DNA from: Eledone cirrhosa
Lineage: Eukaryota
Reading direction: 5' to 3'
Assembly: GCA_964016885.1 (NCBI GenBank)
Contig: OZ024742.1
Location: 297,104,001 to 297,168,000 of the forward strand
DNA length: 64,000 nucleotides
A program made the position numbers and the translations under genes. A model generated the notes under the pieces. That model was given only the letters and a program-made list of their open reading frames with translations, made no database searches and was not told the origin of the DNA. Below, in pieces: positions 1,342 to 58,469 of the stretch (positions within the stretch are counted from its first letter, which is position 1; every line of letters begins with the position of its first letter).

Positions 1342-2312
1342 GGCTTTAAACAAATTGGTTTGATAAATGTCCTTACGCATGAAACTCCTGAAGCTTCACC
1401 GCTATAATAAAATATATATTACTCTCTACATATATTGAATTTTGTTTCTCGCATTTGCACAACCAAACCTGTCAGGGATATAAATTTTGCTATTCAAAAA
1501 AAAAAACAGAATGTAAAAGTATCAATAATAAATATATTAAATAATAAATATATAAACACTGATTTAATTTCTTGGAGTATTTAATGAGAATTCATCTAGA
1601 TTTAGAAAACTATATATCTGTTATACCAGTGCATGAATTGATTTAATTGAAGTTATAAAATCTTACAAGAGTCCTGCTTTCGTGAAGTTTTCTATATGAT
1701 GAAAAATACACAAATAACACAAGAATCAAGATAAGAAAAAGCCAGAGAAAATATATAAAGGTTTTATAGAGCTTAATGTATTTTTAAAATCTGCTGTTTT
1801 CTAATTGACAAAGCTTATTTCTATGATAACAGTTAATGAGAAGTGGTTATAATTTATTATGTCTTCTGTGAAATCAGATAATGTAAAACATGGTTTGAAA
1901 TCACTTTAACAAACATAGTGTCAATGTAAAGATGTAATGAACAGGTTTCTACTGAAAATTCTAATTTGTTATTTAGGTAAAAGATTATATATCTTCCATT
2001 AATTAGAGCTTGCGAGCTTCATCAGCTGATGCATAAATACCATAAGCTTTTAGTTTATTTTCGTTTTATCAACAATGTGGAGTTAGCCTCTCTGAAAGAA
2101 CCAGAAATGATGTAGTTAGGGTACACTAGGGTCCTCTTCCTTGGTTGGTAAAAAAGAGTAGTGAAATTCGCTGCTTTTAAAATTCATAATGAGGATATAA
2201 AAATATTTATTTACATGAACATTTTATATATGATTTAAAATACAGCCCCAGTCACATATTAATCATGCTATATCAGCACACCACTAACTCTCTTGTATAT
2301 ACATATATATAT

Positions 2313-2463
2313 ATAAGCAAAGAGATATTTAATTTGCTGGTAATTCAACAAATTTATTTATTATAACAGATTCAAAGCACTCTACAAGTTTCCTGGAGTA
2401 TAATAACAATGATATTATAATAAATGGAAACTATATTTATAAAACCATATTTATTTTATTATA
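2313..2463 (-). mobile_element. Inverted pseudo-LTR terminus of the PLE family at 19903-23828
   Basis: Reverse complement resembles 23690-23830 (AAAGCACTC.ACAAG..GGAGTA..GATATTA.TAAATGGAAACTATATTTATAAAACCATATT); abuts (TA)n. Confidence 0.75.
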
Positions 2464-2472
2464 TATATTATA

Positions 2473-2545
2473 GTTGTGAGATCGATTCCTGGACCGGGCG
2501 ATACGTTATGTCCTTGAGCAAGACACTTTATTTCACGTTGCTCCT
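2473..2545 (+). mobile_element. SINE family B fragment
   Basis: GATCGATTCCTGGACCGGG..CCTTGAGCAAGACACTTTATTTCACGTTGCTCC matches 38745-38815 and 61915-61980. Confidence 0.7.
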
Positions 2546-2644
2546 TCTAATTGGAGTTGTGACCGATGTACTAGTAACTGGAAAGACCGATGAAAACATT
2601 GTTTCCTCGGTCCGATTTGACGAAAGTCGATCGATCCTTTATAT

Positions 2645-2975
2645 TATATTATATAGGAGCCACTTCTACAAAATTTAAAGAACGCTGGTATAATCATAAA
2701 CATACATTTAATAGGTCCAATAAAAAATGTTCCACATCAATTTCGCATCTAATTTGGCACTTAAAGGACAATAATATTGACTATTCAATCTCTTGGGGAA
2801 CGATTTCGAAAGCACCCGCATACCGAAATATGGCTTTCTCAAGAATCTGTCATTTGTGTATTGAAGAAATTTTTTATATACTCACCTGCCAAAATTCTAT
2901 CAACCTATAAATAAAATTATTCAGTTCCTGCAGACATCGTCAAAAAATGACTTTCCGAAGTATTTATAATCTATA
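2645..2975 (+). pseudogene. PLE GIY-YIG endonuclease C-terminal remnant
   Basis: YYIGATSTKFKERWYNHK..SISHLIWHLK..CHLCIEE.., then SCRHR after a stop; homologous to the C-terminus of the 20113 ORF. Confidence 0.85.
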
Positions 2976-3400
2976 GTATAGTATATAATTCACTTATTCA
3001 CATTCTATATGTCTTCACTATTCTTCTGTCAATGTTTAGTTATGAGTTTTAAATGATTTTTTCTTTTTCTTTTTATGTAATATATTTCTTACAAATGATA
3101 TTCATTTCCAATTGATTTCCTTTATATTTTTATATTTTTATATTTTTTAATTAATATTTCTTAATTCATATTTTGAAATATATCCTTTTTTCGTGATAGT
3201 TTTCTAAATACACTTGAGGTCTCTAATAATATTTTCCTTCCTAATTGACTATATAGATAATATCTAAATACATATATAAAAGAAATTCTCATCTTTGAAA
3301 ACATGTAATATAAAATACCTTATAATCATACATAAAATAATATATAAAATTTTCTCCACATACATTTTAAGTAAATTCTAAAATCTAACGTAAATAGTGC

Positions 3401-3448
<48 letters not shown>

Positions 3449-19600: not shown

Positions 19601-19904
<304 letters not shown>

Positions 19905-20112
19905 GATATTAATAAATGGAAACTATATTTATAAAACCATATTTATTTCATTATACAGGGATACCAAATTAAATTATGGTATGCCTTCATCGGACAAAAT
20001 ACAATATATAACAGTTTTACAAATAAGCTTTGACGTACCCTATTAAAATGCAACCATTATTTTTGGAAGCCATCCGGATAGTGAGTTGTTTATATTATTT
20101 TAATAAGTCATA

Positions 20113-21984
20113 GTGTTAAGGACAATTAGAAAAAGACGGAGAGAAAGAAACGACCTTATATTGAAAGAACTAAGGAAAAAGTACAAGGTAGCAAATAAGG
20201 ACGAACTTGATAAACTGAATACAGATGCATCTTGTATAATGCATGAATTAGACATTGAGAATAAAACACAACCCTTCATGCCTAGGAAACCTAAGATCAA
20301 TATGAAGGATCACAAAAGAAACTTTGAAAATGATTTACCAGTCAGATTAATTGCACCATCTAAATCTGACCTGGGAAAACTTAGCAAAAATATTCTAGAC
20401 AGGGTAATACAACAAATTAAAAACTTACCTAATTTATCTTACTTAAAATTATGGAAAGGTACTAGTGAGGTTATCGATTGGTTTAAAGAAATTAAATATA
20501 ACTATGATCATAAGTTTATTCAGCTGGATATTACTAACTACTATTCATCTATCACTCCTAATCTACTGAATAAGGCACTAAATTACGCATTTAAACATAC
20601 AGACCTAACTAGCAATGAAATGCACATTATATTATCGGCAAGGAAAACATTGATAGAATTTAATAACCAACTCTGGACTAGGGCAGATAGAAATAATAAT
20701 TTCGACATAACTATGGGATCATCAGACTCAGCTCAGGTAACGGACCTTGTGGGCCTATTTATAATTAATTCGCTACATAGAAAAATACCAGGTGTAACCG
20801 GAGGCTTATATCGTGATGATATGCTTTTACTTATACAAAATAATAGCTGTGAACTAAATAGAAAAAGAAAACAAATTATACAATTTTTTAATTACCTTAA
20901 CCTAAAAGTAGAAATAGAGAATAACCATAAAATAGTCAATTTTCTTGACGTAACACTAAATCTCAACACATGTGTTCATTATCCATTTCATAAACTAAAT
21001 GAGAACTTGAATTATGTTAATTTTAACTCTAATCACCCCAGATCTGTTAAAAATACTATAGTGAACTCTGTTCAAGAAAGAATAAAAAAAATTTCATCTA
21101 ATAAAATTATATTTGATGAAAAAGCGCAGTACTACAACGAAGCGTTAGGTAGAGCTGGATATAGAAATAAAATTAAATACATTGATAATAATAATAATAA
21201 GCAAACTAACCAAAATAATAACAATTTTAATTATGGTAACAAGTTTAACAACTATAATAGAAAACATTACAATAATTCCAAAAGCCGAAAAAGAAATAGA
21301 ACTAGAAATATATTATGGGTTGCTCCCCCTTTCTCACTAAATATTAAAACCCCTATTGCTAAACTATTCTTTAAAGCTCTTGACAAACGCTTCCCTAGAA
21401 CACATAAATATTACTCAATTTTTAATAGATACACTATAAAATTAACTTACTCGTCCACCAAAAATTTAGCACAAAATATTAATAGAATTAATAATAGAAA
21501 TTTAAAACCTAACCAAAATACCAATAATAACCCAAGCAATATTCAATTGAATAACTGTAACTGTAGAAATAAATCTAACTGTCCGTTAAATAACAACTGC
21601 TTAGCTAAAAATGTAGTGTACAATTGTAATGTTAAAACTAATTTAAATTCATTTAACTATGTTGGTTCTACCTCTACAGAATTTAAATTTCGCTTCAATA
21701 ACCATAAAAATTCTTTCACAGATCCAAACAAAAAATCTTCAACTTCGCTATCTAGCCTACTATGGGACCTAAAACGAGATAATGTTAAATATTCGATGAC
21801 TTGGAATATTATTTCATAAGGTACTCCTTTTAATTCCTCTTCAGAAAATTGTGATCTTTGTATTGAAGAAATATTCTTTATATTAAAGTCCAAAAATTCC
21901 CTTAATTTAAGGAACAATTTATTCAGTTGCTGCAGACATAGATTGAACTCAACGTTTAAATATAAATATAAATTTAAAATGTAG
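20113..21984 (+). CDS. PLE reverse transcriptase + GIY-YIG endonuclease; N-truncated, one in-frame TAA at 21817-21819
   Basis: KDHK..RLIAP, LDITNYYSSI, TMGS, LYRDD, NFLDV, SNHP; CNC..CPL..C, VVY..YVGST..RFNNH; frame continues after the stop as GTPFN..CDLCIEE..CCRHR to TAG at 21984. Confidence 0.92.
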
Positions 21985-22473
21985 TATAATTAATTAAGTA
22001 ATTTAGTTAATATATGAAACTTGTCGATAAATCATTAGATTCCTTCACCTTTTTCTTTTTAAACTTTCTTCCTAAATATAAACATAGATATAATAAACTA
22101 CTCTAAAATGTCTATACTTCCAATGTCTTAAATAAAATATACGTAAGATAAATTTCTATACTAAATATAAGGATATCTGTAGAATCCTTGGGTTTTTTAA
22201 ATCTTTTAAATTTTTAAATTTTTAAATTTTTTTAAACTTTTTTAAATTTTTTAAATTTTTAAATTTTTAAATTTTTAAATTATATTGATATAATATTTAT
22301 TTAACTCTTATTTTTATTTTTATTTTTATTTTTATTTATTTTAGTTTTGTTTTGATTCTGATAGCTTCTCATAATTTCCCATAAGTCTACCCTTTCAATA
22401 TCTAGATTGAAATATACCTAGGATAAATTTCTATACTAAATATATGAAACATATTATTTTAACTTAAGATACT

Positions 22474-22987
22474 CTAGTATTTCAGTATGCATATGTAGAT
22501 GTACATTTTTAACTTAATTGTTTAAGCGTCAGTCATACAAAAGTGAGTTACAAACGAAACGAAATTTAATTTCGTTTCGTTATTTGTTTTTATCGTCTCC
22601 GCTGAACCGGTGCGTACTCACACTCTATGCAAATTAGTCTGCCCACTACTAATTTTCATAGAAAAAGCATATAACGATATGTGCTTTTACAATTCTCCAG
22701 AAAGGCCGGTAGATAGGTAAATATTGCTGATGAGTTGTAACAACAACGAAACTAGTTCAATATTCCTTGTCTGGCTTTCTGGAGAATAGGGGGAAGGTGT
22801 TCCCCCAAAAACCAGTATGACTCTAAAAACCGGTTTGTCTGTGTGTTTACATACAGAATAGCTGGGCCGCTCACTGTAAAGCGACCAGTGAAAGACTTGG
22901 TACACCTACATATGTATACGTGTGTGTATTCATATACACACTAGTATTTCAGTATGCATATGTAGATGTACATTTTTAACTTAATTG
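22474..22987 (+). mobile_element. Retrozyme-like HHR unit, copy 1 (467-nt unit + 47-nt terminal redundancy)
   Basis: Identical 47-mers at 22474-22520 and 22941-22987; octamer at 22627-22634; HHR at 22720-22764; several hairpins; homology to 27160-27570. Confidence 0.75.
22720..22764 (+). ncRNA. Type I hammerhead ribozyme
   Basis: AATATTG-CTGATGA-GTTGT(AACA)ACAAC-GAAA-CTAG-TT-CAATATT; stem I extended by TTCTCCAGAAAG/CTTTCTGGAGAA. Confidence 0.9.
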
Positions 22988-23631
22988 ATATTTGATTATC
23001 TCTATACAAATGTGTATGTGTATTAACATGCATATAAAAGTGTTATAGGTTTTTTATGATTGTATATATGTCTATGTATACATAAGCGATGCGGGAAGAC
23101 GCAAGCAAATATTTATTTATACATATATATGTGTATATATATATATGTATATCTATGTGTGGGTAAGAGATATGTTGCTTAACCACGCAGTTTTGATTGC
23201 AGATATGCATAATTTTAACAGAATGTTAAATGCATGAATGGTAATCGTATATATGAAGACAGGAATGTTAATCGTATATATTTATGTATATATACTGTGA
23301 ACTTTTTTATAACACAAGGAATGTATAGCAGTGATTAAGAGAAATCGTCTGCGTTTTATATGTCTATATTGTTGACTTGAGTAAATATATATATATATAT
23401 CTTTTTTCACCATGCATCTCTCTCTCTCTCAGATACTTCTCCACGATTTTTTCACGATTTTTTATTTCTCTCTCTCCGTCTTTTTCTTTCTCTCCGTCTT
23501 TTTCTAATTCTCCTTAACACTATGACTTATTAAAATAATATAAACAACTCACTATCCGGATAGCTTCCAAAAATAATGGTTGCATTTTAATAGGGTACGT
23601 CAAAGCTTATTTGTAAAACTGTTATATATTG

Positions 23632-23696
23632 TATTTTGTCTGATGAAGGCATACCATAATTTAATTTGGTATCCCTGAAATATGTATAATGAAATA
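23632..23696 (+). ncRNA. Minimal type I hammerhead in PLE pLTR
   Basis: TATTTTGT-CTGATGA-AGGCATACCA..TGGTATCCCT-GAAA-TATGTA-TA-ATGAAATA. Confidence 0.8.
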
Positions 23697-23824
23697 AATA
23701 TGGTTTTATAAATATAGTTTCCATTTATTAATATCGTATATCTACTCCAAATACTTGTCGAGTGCTTTATATCAGTTATAAAAATATTTACTTGTTGTAT
23801 CCCAACAATTTTAAATAGAACTTT

Positions 23825-23865
<41 letters not shown>

Positions 23866-23873
<8 letters not shown>

Positions 23874-24222
23874 GTGAGGTTTTTTTTTACAAAATGAAAA
23901 ATAACCGAGGTGTCCTACACGAGTGGAAGTATAAAGAAAAAGGGATGAAATCGAAAATGCAACTGAAGTCTTATTTTTTTTTTAAATATATATATTTATT
24001 TGGTTCCTTTACCGGTTTCGCAGTTCTTCTGCTTTTCAAAAGGTGAGTTGAGATGGAGGGTCTGTGGTTTTTCTCACAGATGTGAGAAAAACCACAGACC
24101 CTCCATCTCAACTCACCTTTTGAAAAGCAGAAGAACTGCGAAACCGGTAAAGGAACCAAATAAATATATATATTTTTTAAAAAAATAAGACTTCAGTTGC
24201 ATTTTCGATTTCATCCCTTTTT

Positions 24223-24228
<6 letters not shown>
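23866..24228. mobile_element. Fold-back solo pLTR of the Neptune-like PLE family (~300-bp palindrome)
   Basis: 23930-24228 near-perfect inverted repeat centred ~24079; arms homologous to 29620-29821; (TA)n on both sides. Confidence 0.85.
24116..24153 (+). ncRNA. Minimal hammerhead, U3-A8 core variant (mirror copy 24006-24043 on -)
   Basis: CCTT-TTGAAAA-GCAG(AAGAA)CTGC-GAAA-CCGG-TA-AAGG. Confidence 0.75.
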
Positions 24229-24321
<93 letters not shown>

Positions 24322-24564
24322 GATATTAAATAAATGGAAACTATATTTATAAATTTCGTTTCTGAATTTGTTTAGCAAGATTCTTTATCTGAAAACGTGT
24401 GTTGAAACCGATATTGTTATACTTTGGGAGGGTCATGTTGCCAATAAGAAACACACGCACCAGTTGCTTTCACTTCAATTTATTATAATAAATTTATAAA
24501 TTTAGGAATTTATAAATTTCCGGTTGGTTGGTTGGTTCCACAACCAGATGGTTGTTTATATATT

Positions 24565-26263: not shown

Positions 26264-27116
26264 TACGAGGTGATATCAAAAGGTTCCCAGCTTAGTTATG
26301 TTTAAAATATATATATATATATTTACCTACGTTTTAACAAAATCTCCTTTGAAATAGTCACCTTGCACAGTTATACACCGATCCCAGCATTCCTGCCACT
26401 TTTGGAATCCAGCCTGGATGTTTCTTTCCGTTAGTTAGTTGAGGACCTTCTGCGATTTGCTCTAGATCTCAGAAACAGTGTTATAACAGTGAACTTTGAG
26501 CTGCATTTTGAGCTTGGAGAAGAGATGGAAATCTACAGGTGCTAAATCTGGTGAATAGGTTGGGTGCAGAAGCGATAAAATGTTTTTGGCGAGAAACTCA
26601 CAAGTGAGGAGAGCATGGTGACAGGGTACATTGTCGTCAACTCTTCGCACTCCACAGATCTGGTCACCTTCAGCGAACATCTTCCCTCAAATGCCTCAAA
26701 ACGTTTCAGTAGAACTGCTGAGTATTTTTCTCAAAATATTTTTGGGGTGGTCTTCCAGAGCGCTCATCATTCTTCCCCTTTTGAAGTGCCTGTGCCAATC
26801 AAAACATTGTGTACGGCCCAGTGTCTTGTTGTCGTAAGCTTACCGAAGCATGCTCAATGTCTCTGTAGCAGACTTCCCAAGTTGAACACAAAATTTCATG
26901 TTGGCTCTTTGTTCCAACTTCCTGTTCATGATAAAATCGCAGCATACATGTGATCACAAAAATACAAATTTCACAACTTGCGAAGTTCACACAGTGATGT
27001 CACACAGCACACTGGCACATGAAGGTCACTGCTAGCTCTCACTGCACATGCAACTGTGTGTTGCAATCTGTTGGTGCGCTACAGAACTAGTCCAGAAAGC
27101 TTTTTGATACCACTTC

Positions 27117-27119: not shown

Positions 27120-27159
<40 letters not shown>

Positions 27160-27162
<3 letters not shown>

Positions 27163-27570
27163 GGAATAGGATGAAACGAAATTTCATTTCTCACTCTTAA
27201 TACGGCTGATACTTAAATGTAAGTATGTACACGTACATACATATATGTATACAGACGTACAGTAGTATGTATATATATATGCACGTATGGGTTTACCGAA
27301 CAATTATCATAATGTTCGGTTTGTTTGTAAACAAACAGCCCGAATTACGCCGTACAGTGTTTGGCAACCATCGTCGACTTTTTGTTCAACACTGACACAG
27401 GAACGATGTACTAGTTTCAAGCTTATTAGCTATCGTCAGCATCGTATACCTTTCTGTCAGATGATTGAACGTTTGAAAGTATATACTTTTCTTATGCATA
27501 TTAACGGCTGAGCAGCCTAATTTGCATATCGAGTGAGTTAGTCGGCCGGGCGTCCCGAAAACGATATATA
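27160..27570 (-). mobile_element. Retrozyme-like HHR unit, copy 2 (circularly permuted relative to copy 1)
   Basis: Octamer (ATTTGCAT at 27520-27527 on +), HHR at 27403-27445, shared motifs with 22474-22987 in permuted order; TA-rich flanks. Confidence 0.72.
27403..27445 (-). ncRNA. Type I hammerhead ribozyme
   Basis: ACGATG-CTGACGA-TAGCT(AATA)AGCTT-GAAA-CTAG-TA-CATCGT on -; stem extended by CTGACA/TGTCAG and TTGAAC/GTTCAA. Confidence 0.9.
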
Positions 27571-28315
27571 CACATACATATATACGTGGTTGGTCGAAAT
27601 ATTCCGAATTTGATTTCTAACAAGCATGCTAATTTTATATCGCTGTCTAATTGCCTATTGGCATTTAATGTCCAGAAACGTGTTAGGCACTACCATTGTT
27701 TACTATCGCACTGTTTCGCCATGCTACTTGGAGACTAAAGCCGAATGCTACCATTCTCTTGTACAATGATTCGAGACAGATTTTCTCCAGTAACCGATTT
27801 TTTCACTCACTTGTTAATTGGTGTTTGATTTGACATATGTTGGTGAGTCCTTATGGAGGGGCAGAATGAATTGAATTACTACTCCTAACATCACGCAAAT
27901 CTTTGAACCAGTGGCCAATCGGTTGAAAGCATTTTGATGACGTGTAGGAATTTCAGTTACTATGTCACCTGTTACATTCACTGCCATAGGCGGCACAAAC
28001 TGGAATCAAATTCTATCGATTCATTGATTATTGATTAGGCGAGACCCGCTGATGAAGCCACATGTGCCGATTGTGCATTGTTGCATAAATAAATCAGACA
28101 GTAGATGCTGTACGCTCTCTTGCTGCATTAAGTGTGGCAGAAACTCAAGTGTGGGTATAGATTTATGGTACCCATTTACGTGTATGGTATTGAAGCAATT
28201 AACTTTGCATCTACTCTGGGATTTTTACATAACCTTACAAATTGAGATGCAACTGGTACTAGCAGGGAGTCTTATGCTAGTCTCGTCAACTTCCTTTATA
28301 TATATATATATATTA

Positions 28316-29337
28316 ATACTGATTAATGTTCAGAGCCATCCTCGGCATTCTCGTGTAGCACCCATCCACCATCTGAGTGAGTTTCCTGGTCAGTGTCCAA
28401 GTCTCAGACCTGTACAGCAGCACAGACTCCGCAACAGCAATAAAGAGGTGGATCTTCAGATCTTCACGAAGGTCCGACTTCCACACCGATCTCAAGCTGT
28501 GGCACGCCACCCAGGCTAGGCTCTTCCTCTCAACCACATCATCTTCCGTATTCCCAACCTTTGCTCCCAAATACAGGAAGTCCTCAACTAATTCCAGCGG
28601 CTTCCCGCCTACATTAGTAATCCCCTCTGGCTTCTCAACATTCTCTACTAGACATTTTGTCTTAGTCTCATTCATTCTCAGCTCCACACTCATCGATACA
28701 GTCTCAAAATCCTGCATCAAATCCTCTGCCTCATTCACTGTATTTGTCACCAAATCTATGTCGTCGGTAAATTCAGCATCCGATATCTTTTTCGCCTTAA
28801 CTCTCCTGCTCTGAGCTGGTGTTTCAGTAAAGCCAGAGTCCTGGCGTTTCTCCAGTGCAAGGCGCATACAATAGTCCACTACGATGATAAAAAGGTAGGG
28901 AGCCAATGTATCTCCCTGGAGCACTCCAGCCATCAGGTGTAATGACTTGGGCTTTGGTGTTGGCGTAGAGCAGTGATATCAGGTCCACTATCTTCTTGGG
29001 GATTCCATAAGCCTGTAAGAACTTCATCAGTATACACTGAGGATGAAAAACTCAGAGCTGTACGGGAGCCTCCCAAAAGTCAGCTCAAAAGTGACACAGA
29101 GGAGACTGATGTTAGCTGGACATGCTCACTGACGTCCAGAGTTGACACTGCACTCAGTGCTTCTGTGGGAGCCCCTGCATGGACACACTGGAAGACGAAG
29201 ACCAAGGTTAACGTATGTTGATGCCCTTAAGGACAGACGCTGGTCTGTGGGAGACGCAGGACATGGCAGCGATAATGAGGGACAGAGACCGTTGGAGAGA
29301 ACTCGTTCATAGATCTCGGGAATTTTACCCGCCCTAG
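28316..29337 (+). mobile_element. RTE-clade LINE with 5' inversion
   Basis: 28316-29027 on -: GVLQGDTLAPYLF..EFTDD..FLYLG..RMALNINQY; 29026-29337 on +: QYTLRMKNSELYG..RRLMLAGH..LLWEP..RPRLTYVD; (TA)n flanks. Confidence 0.88.
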
Positions 29338-29619
29338 ATATATATATGTATATATATATATATATCATCATCATCATCATCGTCATCATCATTTTACGTC
29401 CGCTTTACCTTGCTTGGAGCCATTATTAATCGACTCCGTAAGGATGAAAGGCAAAGTTAACTAAATCCCGCCGAGGGGTTGATAAAATAAAGTACCAGTA
29501 ATGTACTGAGTAATTACTGGCCTTGTGCCAAAAGTAGAAACAATTATTAAAAACCAGATGAAACATTTTATCAAAGAGAAAAGAGATAGCTCCATAAGTG
29601 TATAGTGCAGTAGCCATAT

Positions 29620-32600
29620 ATATTAGAAAATGAGGGTTTTTTACAAAATGAAAAAAAACGAGATGTCCTACACGAGTGAAAGTATAAGGAAAAAAGATGA
29701 ATTTGAAAATGGAACTGTAGTCTTTTTAAGAATATTTATTTGGTTCCTTTACCAGTTTCGCAGTTCTTGTGCTTTTCAAAAGTAGAATTGAGATGGAGGG
29801 TTTGTGGTATTTCTCACATCTGGTTGGTGTTCGGATGTTACTTCTGTTTTATATGGAAAAAAGTGGCTCGAAATGCTAGGTTTTTAGAAAAGTGATTTGG
29901 TTGGTTGAAGACTGTCACGTGAATAAGTATAATAAATTTCGCGCCAGTTCGCGTTACAAAGTTCTTATTATATTTGCTAATTAAAAGGGGGGGGGGGGAG
30001 GGCTCAGATTGTTTTTTCATATATGAGTGAAATTTGGTTGGTTGATGCAGTCACGTGAATAAGCACATTAACTTTCGTGCCAGTTTGTGTTTGAGTTTCT
30101 TTTTACTTAAAAAAGTGGCTCAAAAGGTTTTTTTTATAAATGTAATTTGATTGGTTATAAATGAAATTATTATTCTCATGTGAACAAGTACATTAAATTC
30201 GGCCCAATTTTGGAAATTTTTTGTAGCCATTTAGAGAATTTTGTGCCAAACAAAAGATAATGGTCAAGAAAAATTGAGGAATTGTTCTGGTTCAGTGAGT
30301 ATGGCTGATGTGCTGAGATGTCAAAATTCAGACATTCTATTGAAATAAAGAAAGTAGAGATATATATTTTTATTTGTGTGCTAGTGTGTGTGTGTGTGTA
30401 GGAAAATGATTCTATTAGTAGAAGTGGGGGAGGGAGTTATGTGTGAGTGTATGGGTGTTATATGTGTGTGTGGGAGTATGGTTAGCATGTTAAGATGGAG
30501 AGAATATATATTTGTGTGTGTGTGTAGGAAAATGATTCCATTAGTAGAAATGGGGGAGGGAGTAATGTGTGTGTGGGGGTATGGTTAGCATGTTAAGGTG
30601 TTAGAGTATTAACGTATGTTAAGGTTTATTTAGCTCTGGTTTTTATTTTCGAATATAGAAGGTGTTATGTGTGTGTATGTATGTGTCTAGTTGGATGGTT
30701 AGCATGTTATGGTGTTAACATAATGTATATTAAACTATATTTAATTCTGGTCTGTATTTTTGAATAAACATATTTTCCTTATTTATTCGTATTTGTTCTG
30801 TTGTATTGTCAGCGCAAAGATAAAATGGGAAGACTTGGAATTTGAGGGTCTTATCACTTGCGCATATGTCTATATGTGCACTGAGTGGTATCTGTCTTGT
30901 GGCAGGGTCTCATCATTGTTGGCGAAGAATTGTCATTCTGTTTCTGAGTGTGAGTTTAGTTTGTCTTATATAATCCTCATTGCATCCTTTACATTTAATG
31001 GCATAAACTAAATTTTTTGATGAGCAAGTGAAGTGAATTTTTACAACAAAATTTTGTCCTGATTGAAATGTATACATGTTGCCTTCAATGAGGTGAGTGC
31101 AGGTTCCACAATTAGAGCGACCACATTTTTTGACAGTTGGTTGTGGTTTTGTGGTAGGTAATTTGGCATTGGTGAGTAATGTTTTTAAGGATTTCGGTTG
31201 TCTTTTGCTTTTGATTATTTTGTGTGTTTCAAGGGCTTTTTCATTCTTGGGTCTTGTTTCAATAGTGGAATGTTCTTGTGAATAATGTTGTAAGCTTCCG
31301 CATTTCTTGGGTTGTGTGTTGAGATATATGATAGAATATTGGACGTACATTGAATTTGTTTCTGTTTTCATAATTCATCAATACCTATTGCTTTAGCCCT
31401 TTCTATTCCATTATTTATTAGTAATGGTGGGTCTTTCGAGCAGAATTTCCTTTAATTCTTGAAGTCTTTTATTTCGCGTTTCATAATTGGAGACAATTGT
31501 GCAAATTCTTCTTGCTAGGTTAAAAGGAATGTTCGTCTTCGTGTGCGTTGGATGGTTGGAGGTGAATAGCAGGTATTGTTTGGAATCTGTTGTGTTGTAG
31601 TGTATGTCAGTTTCAATATTTGTGTCTTTTTTTAATGATTAAGATGTTCAGAAATGGGAGTTGATCTTGCCTGTATTCCATTGTGAATTGGATGTGGTTA
31701 TTGATGCCGTTAATTAAATTTTTGAAATCATTTAGTTGGTCGAGTGTGTGAGACCAAATAATAAGACAATCATCCAAGTAGCGTTTCCAATTCTCTGATA
31801 AATATTTGTGGAAGTTCAATCCGTATTTTGATTTGGAGTGTTCATATATCTGAAGTTCCAAGTATGCCATGACTAAGTTAGCATAAGTTGGAGTGACTTT
31901 TGTACCCATTGCAGTCCCCGATATTTGCTTGTAAGTGCTGCCATCGAAATCAAAAAAGTTGTTCTGTAAAATAAATGTTAATCCCTCTGTGATGAAGCTT
32001 TTTTCTATTCTGTCAGGTATCTCATTGGGATATTTCTCTAGCCAGAATCCTATTGCTTCTAGTCCGTATTGGTGTGGGATCGTTGTGTAGAGATTCATTT
32101 CATGGAAAGACACAATAATATTGTCGTTGTTGACATGTTTGGGGAGGTGTTTTAAGAGGTCCAGATCGTCTCTTACAAGGCTTGGTAATTACGAGATTAT
32201 AACCAATCAAATTTCATTTATAAAAAAAACCTTTTGAGCCACTTTTTTAAGTAAAAAGAAACTCAAACGCAAACTGGCGTGAAAGTTGATGTGCTGCATC
32301 AACCAACCAAATTTCACTCATATATGAGAAAACAATCTGAGCCCCCCCCCCTTTTTTAAAGGCAAATTTAATAAGAACTTTGTAACGCAAACTGGCGCAA
32401 AATTTATTATACTTATTCACGTGACAGTTTTCAACCAACCAAATCACTTTTCTAAAATCCTACCATTTCGAGCCACTTTTTTACATATAAAACAGAAGTA
32501 ACACCCGAATACCAACCAGATGCGAGAAAAACCACAAACACCCATCTCAATTCTACTTCTGAAAAACATAAGAACTGCGAAACCGGTAAAGGAACCAAAT

Positions 32601-32655
32601 AAATATTCTTAAAAAGACTCCAGTTGCATTTTCGACTTCATCTTTTTTCCTTATA
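29620..32655 (-). mobile_element. Neptune-like Penelope element, 5'-truncated, with inverted pLTR
   Basis: 29683-30160 is inverted at 32198-32655; RT/EN ORF remnants between; HHR variant in both arms. Confidence 0.9.
30730..32190 (-). pseudogene. PLE RT + Cys-rich linker + GIY-YIG (frameshifted)
   Basis: NLYTTIP, GTAMGT..YANL, RYLDD, PFLN; CGRSNCGTC, NLVYAIKCKGCNEDYI..RNRM; ends ..KYRPELNIV*. Confidence 0.9.
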
Positions 32656-32719
32656 TATATACAATACCCTTCCAAGCAGGGAAAAGTGGACGTAAAATGA
32701 TGATGATGGTGTATATATA

Positions 32720-33527
32720 TATAAATGTAATCTGAGTTTTTTTTAATATTAATAATAACATTCGATTCGTTTGAAATTATGCAAACAAGCCTCAATTTTA
32801 TAGCCATGTCAGTAGAATGAACCCTTCATTCTTGTTCTTGTGTTGGCATGCAAACATAACTGCAGACACTAATGTTTCTGGGTATCACCTTTCATCAGTA
32901 CAGCTCACTGTTCACCTGCCAAACTGTCAGAGCTAGTGAAAATATATGCCAGCACAAGAGCAAGAATGAAAGGTTCATTCTACTGACATGGCTATAAAAT
33001 TGAGGCTTGTTTGCATAATTGCAAACGAATCGAATGTTATTATTAATATTCGAAAAACTCTGATTACATTGTATTCAGCCATGTAGAGCGAAATTTTCTT
33101 TTTTATTTAAATTTGGCAAAGCCTGCCATTTATCGCTCGTATATAGGAAACTGACTGGCCAGTCTGCTGATATGCAAATCTGGCTGATCAGTGGATCTGC
33201 TAATATGCAGATCTGACTGATCAGCCAGTCTGCTAACAAGCAAATCAGGCCGATCACTCACTGTGTATTTTTGAAAATAGCATATATTTTCACTAGCTCT
33301 GACAGTTTGGCAGGTGAACAGCGAGCTGTACTGATCAAGGGTGATACCCAGAAACATTAGTGTCTGCAGTTCTATTCACATGACAACACAAGAGCAAGAA
33401 TGAAGGGTTCATTCTACTGAAATGGCTATAAAGGCTTGTTTGCATAATTGCAAACGAATCGAATGTTATTAATATTCAAAAAACTCAGATTACATTTATT
33501 GTATTCAGCTGTGTAGAGCAAAATTTT

Positions 33528-33531
<4 letters not shown>
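32720..33531. mobile_element. ORF-less pLTR array (inverted + tandem copies) with hammerheads
   Basis: 32723-32949 is inverted at 33280-33497; partial direct copy at 32948-33100; ~31-nt tandem repeats at 33150-33258; (TA)n flanks. Confidence 0.8.
32860..32903 (-). ncRNA. Type I hammerhead (mirror copy 33326-33369 on + has G8>C)
   Basis: CTGTA-CTGATGA-AAGGTGATACCCA-GAAA-CATTAGTG-TC-TGCAG. Confidence 0.8.
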
Positions 33532-33591
<60 letters not shown>

Positions 33592-33676: not shown

Positions 33677-33712
33677 TCTTAACCTTTCGGACACTAGTCC
33701 TTCATCAGAAGA
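33677..33712 (-). ncRNA. Minimal hammerhead in another pLTR remnant
   Basis: TCTT-CTGATGA-A-GGAC(TAGT)GTCC-GAAA-GG-TT-AAGA. Confidence 0.65.
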
Positions 33713-55671: not shown

Positions 55672-55733
<62 letters not shown>

Positions 55734-55741
<8 letters not shown>

Positions 55742-55949
55742 GTGAGGGTTTTTTTTACAAAATGAAAAATAACCGAGGTGTCCTACACGAGTGAAAGTAT
55801 AAAGAAAAAAAGATGAAATCGAAAATGCAACTGGAGTCTTATATTTAAAAAGATATATATATTTATTTGGTTCTTTTATCGGTTTCGCAGTTCTTCTGCT
55901 TTTCAAAAGTAGAGTTGAGATGGAGGGTCTGTGGTTTTTCTCACATCTG
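55734..55949 (-). mobile_element. Solo pLTR fragment of the Neptune-like family with HHR variant
   Basis: Matches 23866-24078; lies between two (TA)n runs. Confidence 0.85.
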
Positions 55950-58469
55950 TATATATATATATATATATATATATAATCAATGAACAGCTGTTTTTCTTGC
56001 AACCAAGGTTTATATTTATATATATTATATAGATGCATATATAAATTATATATATATATATATAGGAAAATAGATGTTGAATTATGTAGAGAACAAATAA
56101 TTTTCTTGGAATGAACATAAGGCATTTTTTTCATCAACAATAAATCAGATACAAAAGACAAAAATCTATTCATCATGTCATTGTTAGACCTTTTGTTGAA
56201 TTATTTCTTGTGTGATTGATAAATTCTGTTATCTGTTTCTCCCTCTACTAAAATAAATATAGACATTTACTATTTCATCTCATAATTTCAAAACTTTCCT
56301 ACAATTAACCTCTTCAGTATTTCCTGAGTTCATATCATTGCTAACTGCCAATCATAGTTTTGGAAGTTTGAAATACTATGCTTTTGATGAGGCTTATGTT
56401 TATATTTTCATTACAGTGTCATGTTTATAAAGATATATAAATGAAACATGAGATCACCATCATCATCAATTGACCTCTGTTTTCCATGCTGATATTAGTT
56501 GGATGGCTCTTAGACTAGACAGGTCAGGAAACCTTATTTCACTCATATGATCCATTTTTGGCATGGCTTCAATGGTTGGATGCCCTCTCTAATGCCAACC
56601 ACTTTATAGAAACTACTGAGATATTGTTATATTTGTTTCCATCACCATGAGAGAGGTTAGTTAGGATTCTTCCATCTGTTTTCATGATGAGTAATCAGTT
56701 GTTTGACCAACTTGTTCTCCAATCCTTGAGTGGTTAAGAAGTCCATTGGTGTATGCATCCTTAATGTCACTCCCAAGCCAAATCAGAATAACATCATATG
56801 TGACAAGACTGAACGATTGAATTACAGATACTGTCCATCTGACAGGCTTTCAACTTTGTCTGTATTTACATATGATTTGTATTAGGAAAAGCATTCAACC
56901 ATAGAAATTCTCCCAAAATAGAACATACAAGTAAGATTTTGTACTCTGACCATGTGTTTTGTGTGCATTAGTAAATGTGTGATGTGTGTCTATAAGTATA
57001 TTTATTTGTTTTATCCCCTTCAGCTGTACACATGCAGTATTGACAAGATTAATGTAGTCACCATGTGATCAACATTTTGGGGTGGAAGACTTAATCCAAT
57101 GCTTGGGTTAACACCACCACTTTTTGTATGCAAGGGCTATTTTGATCATTCATCATTTTGTTATATTATTTTCTCAAATTGGAATAAACAACATATAAAC
57201 TGCTGCAAGAGCAACACATACAGCAAATCTACTGAGTTGTAAATTGTATATGTCAAAATATTACTATAGCAACAAGATAATGATAATAGTTGAAATAATT
57301 GTCCAGGCCAAAATTTGTAAAGTTGTCAAATTTTCTTACGGTGAACTCCCAATTCACTGAAAGTTAAATTTATATCACACACGATACAATCAGATAAATT
57401 AGAATGGAGACAATAAGAGAATTAAAGAATCAATGGAAAGTTCAGTGGGGTAGAGTGAGTGGGGAAGAGCGATGACATAGTGATGGTGGGGGTGATGGAG
57501 GTTTCTTTAGTACAAAGTCTGAGATATTACTGAAGTTTGTCTTGTAGTGTTGTGGTCACACATGATGGCATCTTCTGACTGATGGGATGTTCCATTGTAT
57601 TTGAAGTGAAATAATGATAAATTGTCTTATTGCTTTACTGAACAATAGAGCTATCAAGAATAAAAGGTCAATTTGTATGGTATCCATTAAGACTTGCTCT
57701 GCCTCCTTCTATTATTCTGATTTCATCTAAACTTTTGATATGGTTCACTGAACAGTATAGACATAAAACTTATTGCTTGATGGTTCACCTCTTTGTTTTG
57801 CCTTCTCCCTTATATTACCACAAACAAAACTATCATCACCAACATCATTGTCATCATGATGATAATCTAAAGTAGTGATGCAGTTATAATTCAAGATACA
57901 AGAAGAAAGTTTCAAATTATAGGGAACTAGGAATTATAATATTTTATAGAATATTTTTTTCATAGTGGAAATGGAAACATCCAGGTTGTTATAGCTGGAA
58001 GGAATGGAGGCATCATCAGCATTGTGACAGTGTTGTTACTACACATAGAAACCTTATTGATCTCTTAAAGGCCATCTTGTTGATTAGTATAGACTAACAC
58101 ACAAACAAATTTACAGAAATATTAGAGACTTGGATATTTGTTTCAGCCCTCTAAGCACTTAATTCAAATCCCACTGAGGTCAACTTTGCCTTTAAACCTT
58201 TTGGGGTCGATAATATAGAGTATCTGTCCATGGATAGAGAATTGGCAGAAAAATGTTTTTTTATGATGTTTGATAGGATCTGGTCTGGCTCTGTGTATTC
58301 TGTGTTCAAAATCCTCTATTACTTCCATTGCAGGCTGGCCTCTCATGGGAAGTAATTGAACTAAAAAAAGCAATTATAAACATTCTCAAATACCAATTGA
58401 AATATATTCCTGATGTTTCATATGCTGCTGTAAGTTGAAATAAAGATTAGAACAAACTCACCAATACAT

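Follow-up and report, generated by a model that had tools for sequence, protein, structure and literature searches.

The 64,000-nt stretch of Eledone cirrhosa DNA analysed here, called the window throughout, is AT-rich and holds many (TA)n microsatellites and SINE-like repeats. Positions 20151-21984 of its + strand contain the 5′-truncated ORF of a Penelope-like element (PLE). Its frame begins near 20151 and closes with the stop codon at 21982-21984, and its translation, set against section 11 of PMC8557442, gives a reverse transcriptase (RT), a CxCX5C linker and a C-terminal endonuclease region; read by eye against the Hydra alignment, this is a single ORF in which the RT is followed by an endonuclease of GIY-YIG type. 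Homology begins at about 20150, near residue 110 of relatives that are 685-769 aa long, and the N-terminal end with the RWK and DKT motif region is missing through this truncation. A premature in-frame stop lies at 21817-21819, and the CxxC and CxH motifs of the endonuclease are present 3′ of it. The ORF is 30-47% identical to 47 relatives; the nearest named proteins are Octopus records at 44-47% identity (two of the 47 matches), and Pfam gave no match for the ORF or for two of the relatives.

Both outer ends of the PLE insertion adjoin (TA)n. The terminal repeat (pLTR) with its tail lies at 23483-23827 (+) and ends at (TA)n; it was delimited by inverted copies, and its 5′ edge is undefined, 23483 being simply where the inverted copy stops. 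That copy, at 19899-20150 (-), also adjoins (TA)n and is the reverse complement of 23483-23743, with 249 of 252 aligned positions identical and a 7-nt indel. Its hammerhead core is broken: two of the four differences from the terminal repeat fall there, a substitution in the first box and the 7-nt deletion, which takes out the second, and this could reflect chance or selection against cleavage of the minus-strand transcript. A second Hydra-type remnant, of mixed orientation, occupies 2296-3405 and comprises an inverted terminal-repeat tail (2296-2469, -), an endonuclease fragment (about 2640-2975, +) and a T-rich 3′ region running to (TA)n; a hammerhead scan of this remnant found none. Over the endonuclease region it shares 66% DNA identity with the PLE, and another repeat has inserted at about 2474-2544. 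Since both Hydra-type insertions carry inverted copies of 23483-23827, we take this stretch to be the true terminal repeat of the PLE family.

Judged from its motifs, its (TA)n target and the hammerhead in its terminal repeat, the host element is a Hydra-type PLE. It shares with Hydra clade PLEs such as Hydra-1_Obim (PMC8557442) the C-terminal endonuclease, the CxCX5C linker, the CxxC and CxH motifs, insertion at (TA)n, a 5′-inverted copy and a terminal-repeat hammerhead with a two-ended ‘tail’, although by eye it belongs to a different family from Hydra-1_Obim, and the copy here is truncated with a premature stop. We write ‘Hydra-type’ because the element (20151-23827) measures 3.7 kb even though truncated, exceeding the short length (<3 kb) of the clade; the complete Hydra consensus elements given in PMC8557442 are 2084-2729 bp in all. 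Hydra clade PLEs have a short 3′ region and a single hammerhead, whereas the host PLE has about 1.8 kb and two hammerheads.

This 3′ region measures about 1.65 kb from the stop to the hammerhead of the terminal repeat (about 1.14 kb without the nested unit described below) and about 1.8 kb overall. It opens with a T-rich part of 17% GC (21985-22473, +), where, just 5′ of the unit, there is a degenerate direct duplication (22084-22169 and 22361-22444; its best 60 nt reach 83%). Between the unit and the terminal repeat runs an AT- and microsatellite-rich segment (22988-23482, +; fold z -2.75, some hairpins), whose 495 nt make the 3′ region unusually long and may be native UTR or another captured piece; its reading as a further decayed unit was unsupported (unit-profile E 0.55 or worse). 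Directly 3′ of the PLE (TA)n, 23828-24316 is a near-perfect palindrome (arms 23930-24078 and 24081-24229, 98%), built from a repeat that is also found at 29616-29822, 32517-32661 and 55696-55950 and is the source of microRNA-like Rfam matches; the Rfam microRNA matches in the window correspond to palindromes and microsatellites. Beside (TA)n at 24319-24353, a short fragment resembles the end of the PLE terminal repeat in reverse, and is possibly a third, tiny Hydra-type insertion.

That a separate, retrozyme-like element sits within this 3′ region, co-oriented with the ORF (+), had been claimed in the initial annotation, and our analysis agrees. Its location 3′ of the ORF end (21984) and 5′ of the terminal repeat also stands; the pLTR boundary of about 23500 that was then given falls on an edge that is undefined. 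The unit (copy 1; 22474-22987, +) is a 1.1-mer, consisting of a 467-nt monomer of 37.7% GC (22474-22940) and a 47-nt terminal redundancy: the first 47-mer (22474-22520) recurs exactly, with a period of 467, as the second (22941-22987), whose 3′ end is not at (TA)n. The unit contains no ORF of at least 100 aa. GC content is 37-38% in all three of the related monomers found in the window, against 17% and 28% in the flanks of the unit, and the predicted circular fold of copy 1 (-162.9 kcal/mol, 66% paired) has a z of -11.2 against shuffles, where linear folds of three flanking PLE 3′ segments give -0.04, -2.75 and +0.2. In the predicted fold, a helix formed by 22543-22548 and 22616-22621 closes a multiloop. 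A segment of the unit interior (22900-22919, +) is complementary to the 47-mer, with 18 of 20 positions Watson-Crick and 19 of 20 paired as RNA (score 30; none of 598 tiles as good).

The unit shows no detectable similarity to the host terminal repeat (172 of 500 shuffles as good), suggesting that it parasitises the PLE family in trans and is not derived from it. Nor does it have the make-up of a tRNA-derived or Pol III SINE: the tRNA-gene scan found no tRNA genes, no monomer of the three has a B box, one has an A-box-like match and all three contain T runs of at least four. A scan of bacterial and archaeal genomes for the unit-like motif common to copies 1 and 2 gave no matches, and a second gave 143 pattern matches of which none was confirmed.

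Copy 2 (27159-27566, -; 408 nt, with its hammerhead core at 27439 and a 3′ end adjoining (TA)n) is a circularly permuted 1.0-mer. It is identical to copy 1 at 235 of about 402 aligned positions (58%), with a score of 146 against a maximum of 49 in 500 shuffles. It begins at the equivalent of about 22590 and continues through the hammerhead and a counterpart of the 47-mer into a tail that resembles 22520-22584. This tail scores 35 against 22520-22584 (none of 2954 window tiles and two of 5000 shuffles as good) and 17 against the sequence 3′ of the second 47-mer; the target was picked after recognition by eye, and its position is that predicted by a circle. The counterpart of the 47-mer matches at 32 of 43 aligned positions, a weak, low-complexity match when taken alone (13 of 5000 shuffles as good, and four of 3637 window tiles, copy 2 included). 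The helix equivalent to 22543-22548/22616-22621, which is internal in copy 1 (pair probabilities 0.67-1.0), can form in copy 2 only between its own two ends (0.49-0.86). The circular fold of copy 2 has a z of -4.9, and in the circular consensus fold of copies 1 and 2, which was fitted to those same sequences, 19 of 82 pairs are changed on both sides. Neither terminal redundancy in copy 2 nor resumption of the unit beyond its (TA)n was found. Directly beyond that (TA)n, 26400-27110 (-) is decayed and by eye resembles a mariner-type transposase gene, and at 28313-28978 (-) a 221-codon open frame looks by eye like the C-terminal part of a LINE-type reverse transcriptase.

The 47-mer thus belongs to the unit and is not a target-site duplication (TSD), as had been suggested from the sequence alone: it pairs with the unit interior and has a collinear counterpart across the junction in the circularly permuted copy 2. 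Its place within the unit, together with that permutation, identifies the unit as a 1.1-mer, and copy 2 as a 1.0-mer, of a template that was circular or in tandem, and we consider it very probable that the nested unit is a retrozyme-like copy of such a template.

A third locus (copy 3; 32721-33531, both strands, with TA runs at both ends) was found with a profile of copies 1 and 2, which matched 33237-33346 at E 5.5e-4. It holds an inverted fragment and a partial tandem of a hammerhead-bearing monomer of about 430 nt. The inverted fragment (32721-32949) has an intact core at 32898 on the - strand; on the + strand 32946-33112 is repeated at 33380-33543, giving about a 1.4-mer with an altered core at 33331. 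The internal repeats are identical at 147 of 159 and 208 of 220 positions, and a check for mosaic templates gave too few shared differences to support them (10, 7 and 5 columns, the 10 being mostly two indels). The circular fold has a z of -7.3. Copy 3 is a distant relative: it matches copy 2 at 41 of 48 nt, over those 48 nt only (two of 500 shuffles as good), and matches copy 1 no better than shuffles do (42 of 500 as good). Inverted-plus-partial-tandem is the layout figured for PLEs, and copy 3 is arguably the place in the window where a retrozyme most clearly bears a PLE-type footprint. Just to its right, at 33702 (-), there is a hammerhead-core-like sequence followed by a short hairpin, which failed a relaxed hammerhead scan; long inverted repeats at 29683-30160 and 32197-32655 (about 90% over 478 nt) surround a tandem-repeat region with a strong skew. 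The 64-kb window yielded no full tandem dimer carrying two hammerheads.

The unit contains a type I hammerhead with an intact core. This hammerhead A (22715-22767, +) has a canonical-type metazoan type I fold by motif scan, Rfam HH9 and fold prediction, with helix I from 22720, the core at 22727 and a predicted cut after 22757. It is made up of a helix I with an internal loop, whose stem reaches over about 22692-22787, a 4-bp helix II capped by a 6-nt loop, and a minimal helix III formed by a 6-nt palindrome; the canonical metazoan type is that of tandem repeats (PMC4209133). At 38.6 bits the HH9 match falls short of the gathering score of 52, with E 3.1e-6 over the whole window; helices I and II have a predicted probability of 0.66-0.99 in context. 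Between copies 1 and 2, 29 of 30 cells of the hammerhead pairing are paired and six of seven varying pairs are changed on both sides, a covariation that rests on two sequences (five of 500 shuffles as high; slid controls at most 50%) and points to selection on RNA structure; the letters of loops 1 and 2 are mostly kept.

Hammerhead B, in the PLE terminal repeat (23632-23696, +), is of a PLE-type minimal fold, with helix I from 23632, the core at 23640 and a predicted cut after 23688. Its long helix II is a trait of the minimal hammerheads of PLEs (PMC4209133), and its helix I is weak, with two G-U pairs and a pairing probability of 0.01-0.02 in the predicted ensemble. Motif scans found it; with Rfam at E up to 5, neither hammerhead B nor the hammerhead of copy 2 was listed. 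The initial annotation had held that the PLE transcript would contain two different hammerheads, at 22720 and 23632. Both do lie on the ORF strand, but given the truncation of this PLE copy and its premature stop, which that annotation does not mention, it is doubtful that the locus yields a working transcript with two hammerheads. Cutting at both predicted sites, A and B, would free a 931-nt piece and detach the ORF from the terminal repeat; this speaks against stable cargo. Complementation between A and B as hammerhead partners was ruled out by a heterodimer test, in which the helix III palindromes stay unpaired (+0.5 kcal/mol, against -4.8 and -2.2 for the homodimers). With its one hammerhead the unit would also be unable to release a monomer, and at this locus it probably does little now.

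All three related units keep ATGCAAAT in a hairpin (22627-22634, +, in copy 1; 27527 on the - strand and 33172 in the others), 88-159 nt 5′ of the hammerhead core. This motif, which we take to be the octamer of snRNA promoters, occurs six times in the window, three of them in these units, and about 0.01 would be expected per monomer from the other three. The promoter of newt satellite II reportedly contains the octamer. That satellite is reported to carry an internal promoter of snRNA type (cited in PMC2220036), of which the conserved ATGCAAAT is reminiscent at the level of description; as a lead only, the hairpin may be considered a candidate snRNA-type internal promoter element.

In its general features the unit resembles the metazoan non-LTR retrozymes (PMC7229834; bioRxiv 10.64898/2026.07.22.740005): a non-coding monomer of a few hundred bases with GC below 50%, a type I hammerhead with a minimal palindromic helix III that is free to fold, a highly self-paired predicted circle, the existence of solo monomers, and PLEs as proposed mobilisers. 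It differs in being a solo 1.1-mer with one hammerhead, nested in a PLE and not part of an array; at 467 nt its monomer is slightly above the 150-450 bp of PMC7229834 and within the 51-972 bp of bioRxiv 10.64898/2026.07.22.740005. In the latter, where no mollusc is among the 35 species as given in the text, an active retrozyme is defined by two or more consecutive units, every one of them containing a complete hammerhead. The unit falls outside that definition and fits the ‘monomer/solo’ class of the same work, and for this reason we file it as a retrozyme-like solo copy and not as an active retrozyme. The same preprint proposes a derivation of retrozymes from the PLE pLTR, and the Xenopus retrozyme families are pLTR-derived, in contrast to the unit, which is not detectably related to the terminal repeat of its host. 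With the satellite 2 retrozymes of newt and axolotl the unit has in common a palindromic helix III that needs a dimer (HHR_Amex1, PMC7229834); axolotl retrozymes with a minimal helix III of this kind cleave well as dimers and poorly when alone (PMC7229834).

The junctions of the unit bear on how it came to lie within the PLE. Its left flank (22457-22473, +) consists of 11 nt identical to 22974-22984 and then a 6-nt stretch resembling 22987-22992, a candidate microhomology or short imperfect duplication; the 11-nt identity was reached by 37 of 5000 shuffles and by none of 88 tiles of the PLE 3′ region. All six 3′ ends counted for other elements in the window (copy 2, copy 3, the inverted piece of copy 3, the PLE, its inverted piece and that of the remnant) adjoin TA runs of 8-64 nt, as do 10.6% of background positions, whereas neither end of the nested unit does, which makes it unlike an independent endonuclease-primed insertion. 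The flank microhomology would fit a switch from PLE RNA to a circle and back, for which no nick of its own would be necessary. The identical 47-mers fit the age of the PLE, whose repeats differ by three substitutions in 252 nt (P of none in 47 = 0.57), a divergence that does not separate insertion at the same time from later insertion.

We propose that tandem copies elsewhere in the genome may be transcribed, with ATGCAAAT perhaps marking an internal promoter of snRNA type, and that the transcripts would be cut by paired hammerheads and then circularised. A (TA)n-targeting PLE reverse transcriptase could copy such a circle from an internal start, for one round or slightly more. In the case of the nested unit, an RT copying the RNA of a Hydra-type PLE from its terminal repeat would have jumped to a circle at the 11-14-nt microhomology (22974-22987), copied 1.1 rounds and jumped back, with PLE and unit integrating jointly, either during this event or in a recent precursor. 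What resulted would be a dead-end chimera: a truncated PLE with a premature stop, and a unit unable to release a monomer with its single hammerhead. Chimeras of the U6/L1 type likewise join a small structured RNA, co-oriented, to retrotransposon cDNA in one insertion; there the small RNA is at the 5′ end after one switch, whereas here it would be an internal insert of more than unit length after two switches. PLE RT does start internally on its own RNA (PMC11167929), and more-than-unit copying of circles is a route already proposed for PLEs and retrozymes (PMC4209133; PMC7229834). Counting against capture is that the junction pattern can also come from target-primed insertion with a trimmed primer; a PLE endonuclease cuts AT-rich DNA in vitro, its own 3′ region included, and the start of reverse transcription needed no homology to the cut DNA (PMC11167929). 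Template switching and later insertion are the two routes that the initial annotation had offered for its cargo reading. We hold capture of the unit by template switching during PLE reverse transcription to be evenly poised between right and wrong, and mildly favour it over a later insertion.

Such a later insertion, in which the same 1.1-mer entered a resident PLE by target-primed reverse transcription and 22457-22473/22974-22992 is a real TSD overlapping the 3′ end of the unit, is in our view possible though rather less probable. Units of this kind appear to be common, three lying within 64 kb, the target is very AT-rich, and a PLE protein nicks AT-rich DNA, its own pLTR region too (PMC11167929); the flank duplication is there, and the 47-mers show no difference, against 3 of 252 positions and an indel between the PLE repeats. 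The two copies of the flank duplication are not the same, however (a 2-nt gap and one substitution), the site lacks the (TA)n seen at all six other 3′ ends, the target is small (984 nt, 1.5% of the window) and young, and co-orientation with the PLE counts against chance insertion by a factor of two only. As an empty-site control the remnant at 2296-3405 was rejected: compared with the three segments, its 3′ region scored no higher than shuffled sequence in any case (113, 141 and 97 of 300 shuffles as good), and it stops at (TA)n before any hammerhead.

Capture could instead be ancient, the unit having become a fixed module of the 3′ region in this PLE family and the two-hammerhead element spreading as one. 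The 3′ region is unusually long even without the unit (about 1.14 kb), suggesting a PLE lineage that tolerates accretion, and hammerhead A, presumably weak as a monomer and not pairing with B, might not destroy the PLE transcript; a cut at 22757 would nonetheless part the ORF from the terminal repeat. The identical 47-mers point to a recent event, free relatives of the unit exist without a PLE ORF, File S2 of PMC8557442 gives one sense-strand hammerhead for each of its 25 Hydra families, and the second Hydra remnant, though cut short, has at least 430 nt of 3′ region without the unit, all of which makes us regard a fixed module as distinctly improbable. An origin without any RNA circle, the 47-mer being a TSD or a local DNA duplication and the unit a PLE UTR, the terminal repeat of another PLE or a satellite remnant moved as DNA, would suit the low complexity of the 47-mer and the weakness of its match in copy 2 when taken alone, as it would the other internal duplication in the PLE 3′ region, the resemblance of the hammerhead A helix III to those listed for Hydra pLTRs (PMC8557442), and the permuted ends that trimming of a DNA tandem array also gives. 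It fits poorly with the pairing of the 47-mer to the unit interior over 19 of 20 nt, with the collinearity of copy 2 across the junction, with the absence of detectable similarity between unit and terminal repeat, with the fact that both Hydra insertions carry inverted copies of the 23483-23827 repeat and not of the unit, and with the helix covariation, which points to selection on RNA structure; of the four origins considered, we think it the least credible and very unlikely.

Returning to capture by template switching, a stronger form would be that a Hydra-type PLE lineage acquired, through two template switches, a retrozyme circle unrelated to it and now passes on the two-hammerhead chimera as heritable cargo, the passenger bringing an internal snRNA-type promoter; this we consider unlikely. 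Non-LTR retrozymes, solo monomers, more-than-unit copying of circles and mobilisation by PLEs have all been proposed already (PMC7229834; bioRxiv 10.64898/2026.07.22.740005; PMC4209133), with PLEs a ‘strong candidate’ for mobilising animal retrozymes (PMC7229834) by a mechanism that ‘remains to be elucidated’ (bioRxiv 10.64898/2026.07.22.740005). We found no report on octopus retrozymes, on a retrozyme nested in a PLE or on the octamer in retrozymes, in a literature coverage that left most subscription journals and several supplements outside (the supplement of PMC7229834 may list cephalopod repeats); the main text of the 2026 Octopus repeat annotation has neither ‘ribozyme’ nor ‘hammerhead’.

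The window supplies two partners that can be tested together: a Hydra-type RT-endonuclease that targets (TA)n, and hammerhead monomers of 410-470 nt forming a family whose copies in the genome are circularly permuted, longer than a unit and (TA)n-ended, in one case with the inverted-plus-partial-tandem layout of PLEs. A later insertion would make the nesting ordinary. With template switching as the origin of the nested copy, helper and parasite would have been caught in one cDNA; and if the unlikely heritable-cargo reading were true, the locus would be direct genomic proof that PLE RT copies retrozyme circles, and would show traffic from retrozyme to PLE, the reverse of the published pLTR-to-retrozyme model.
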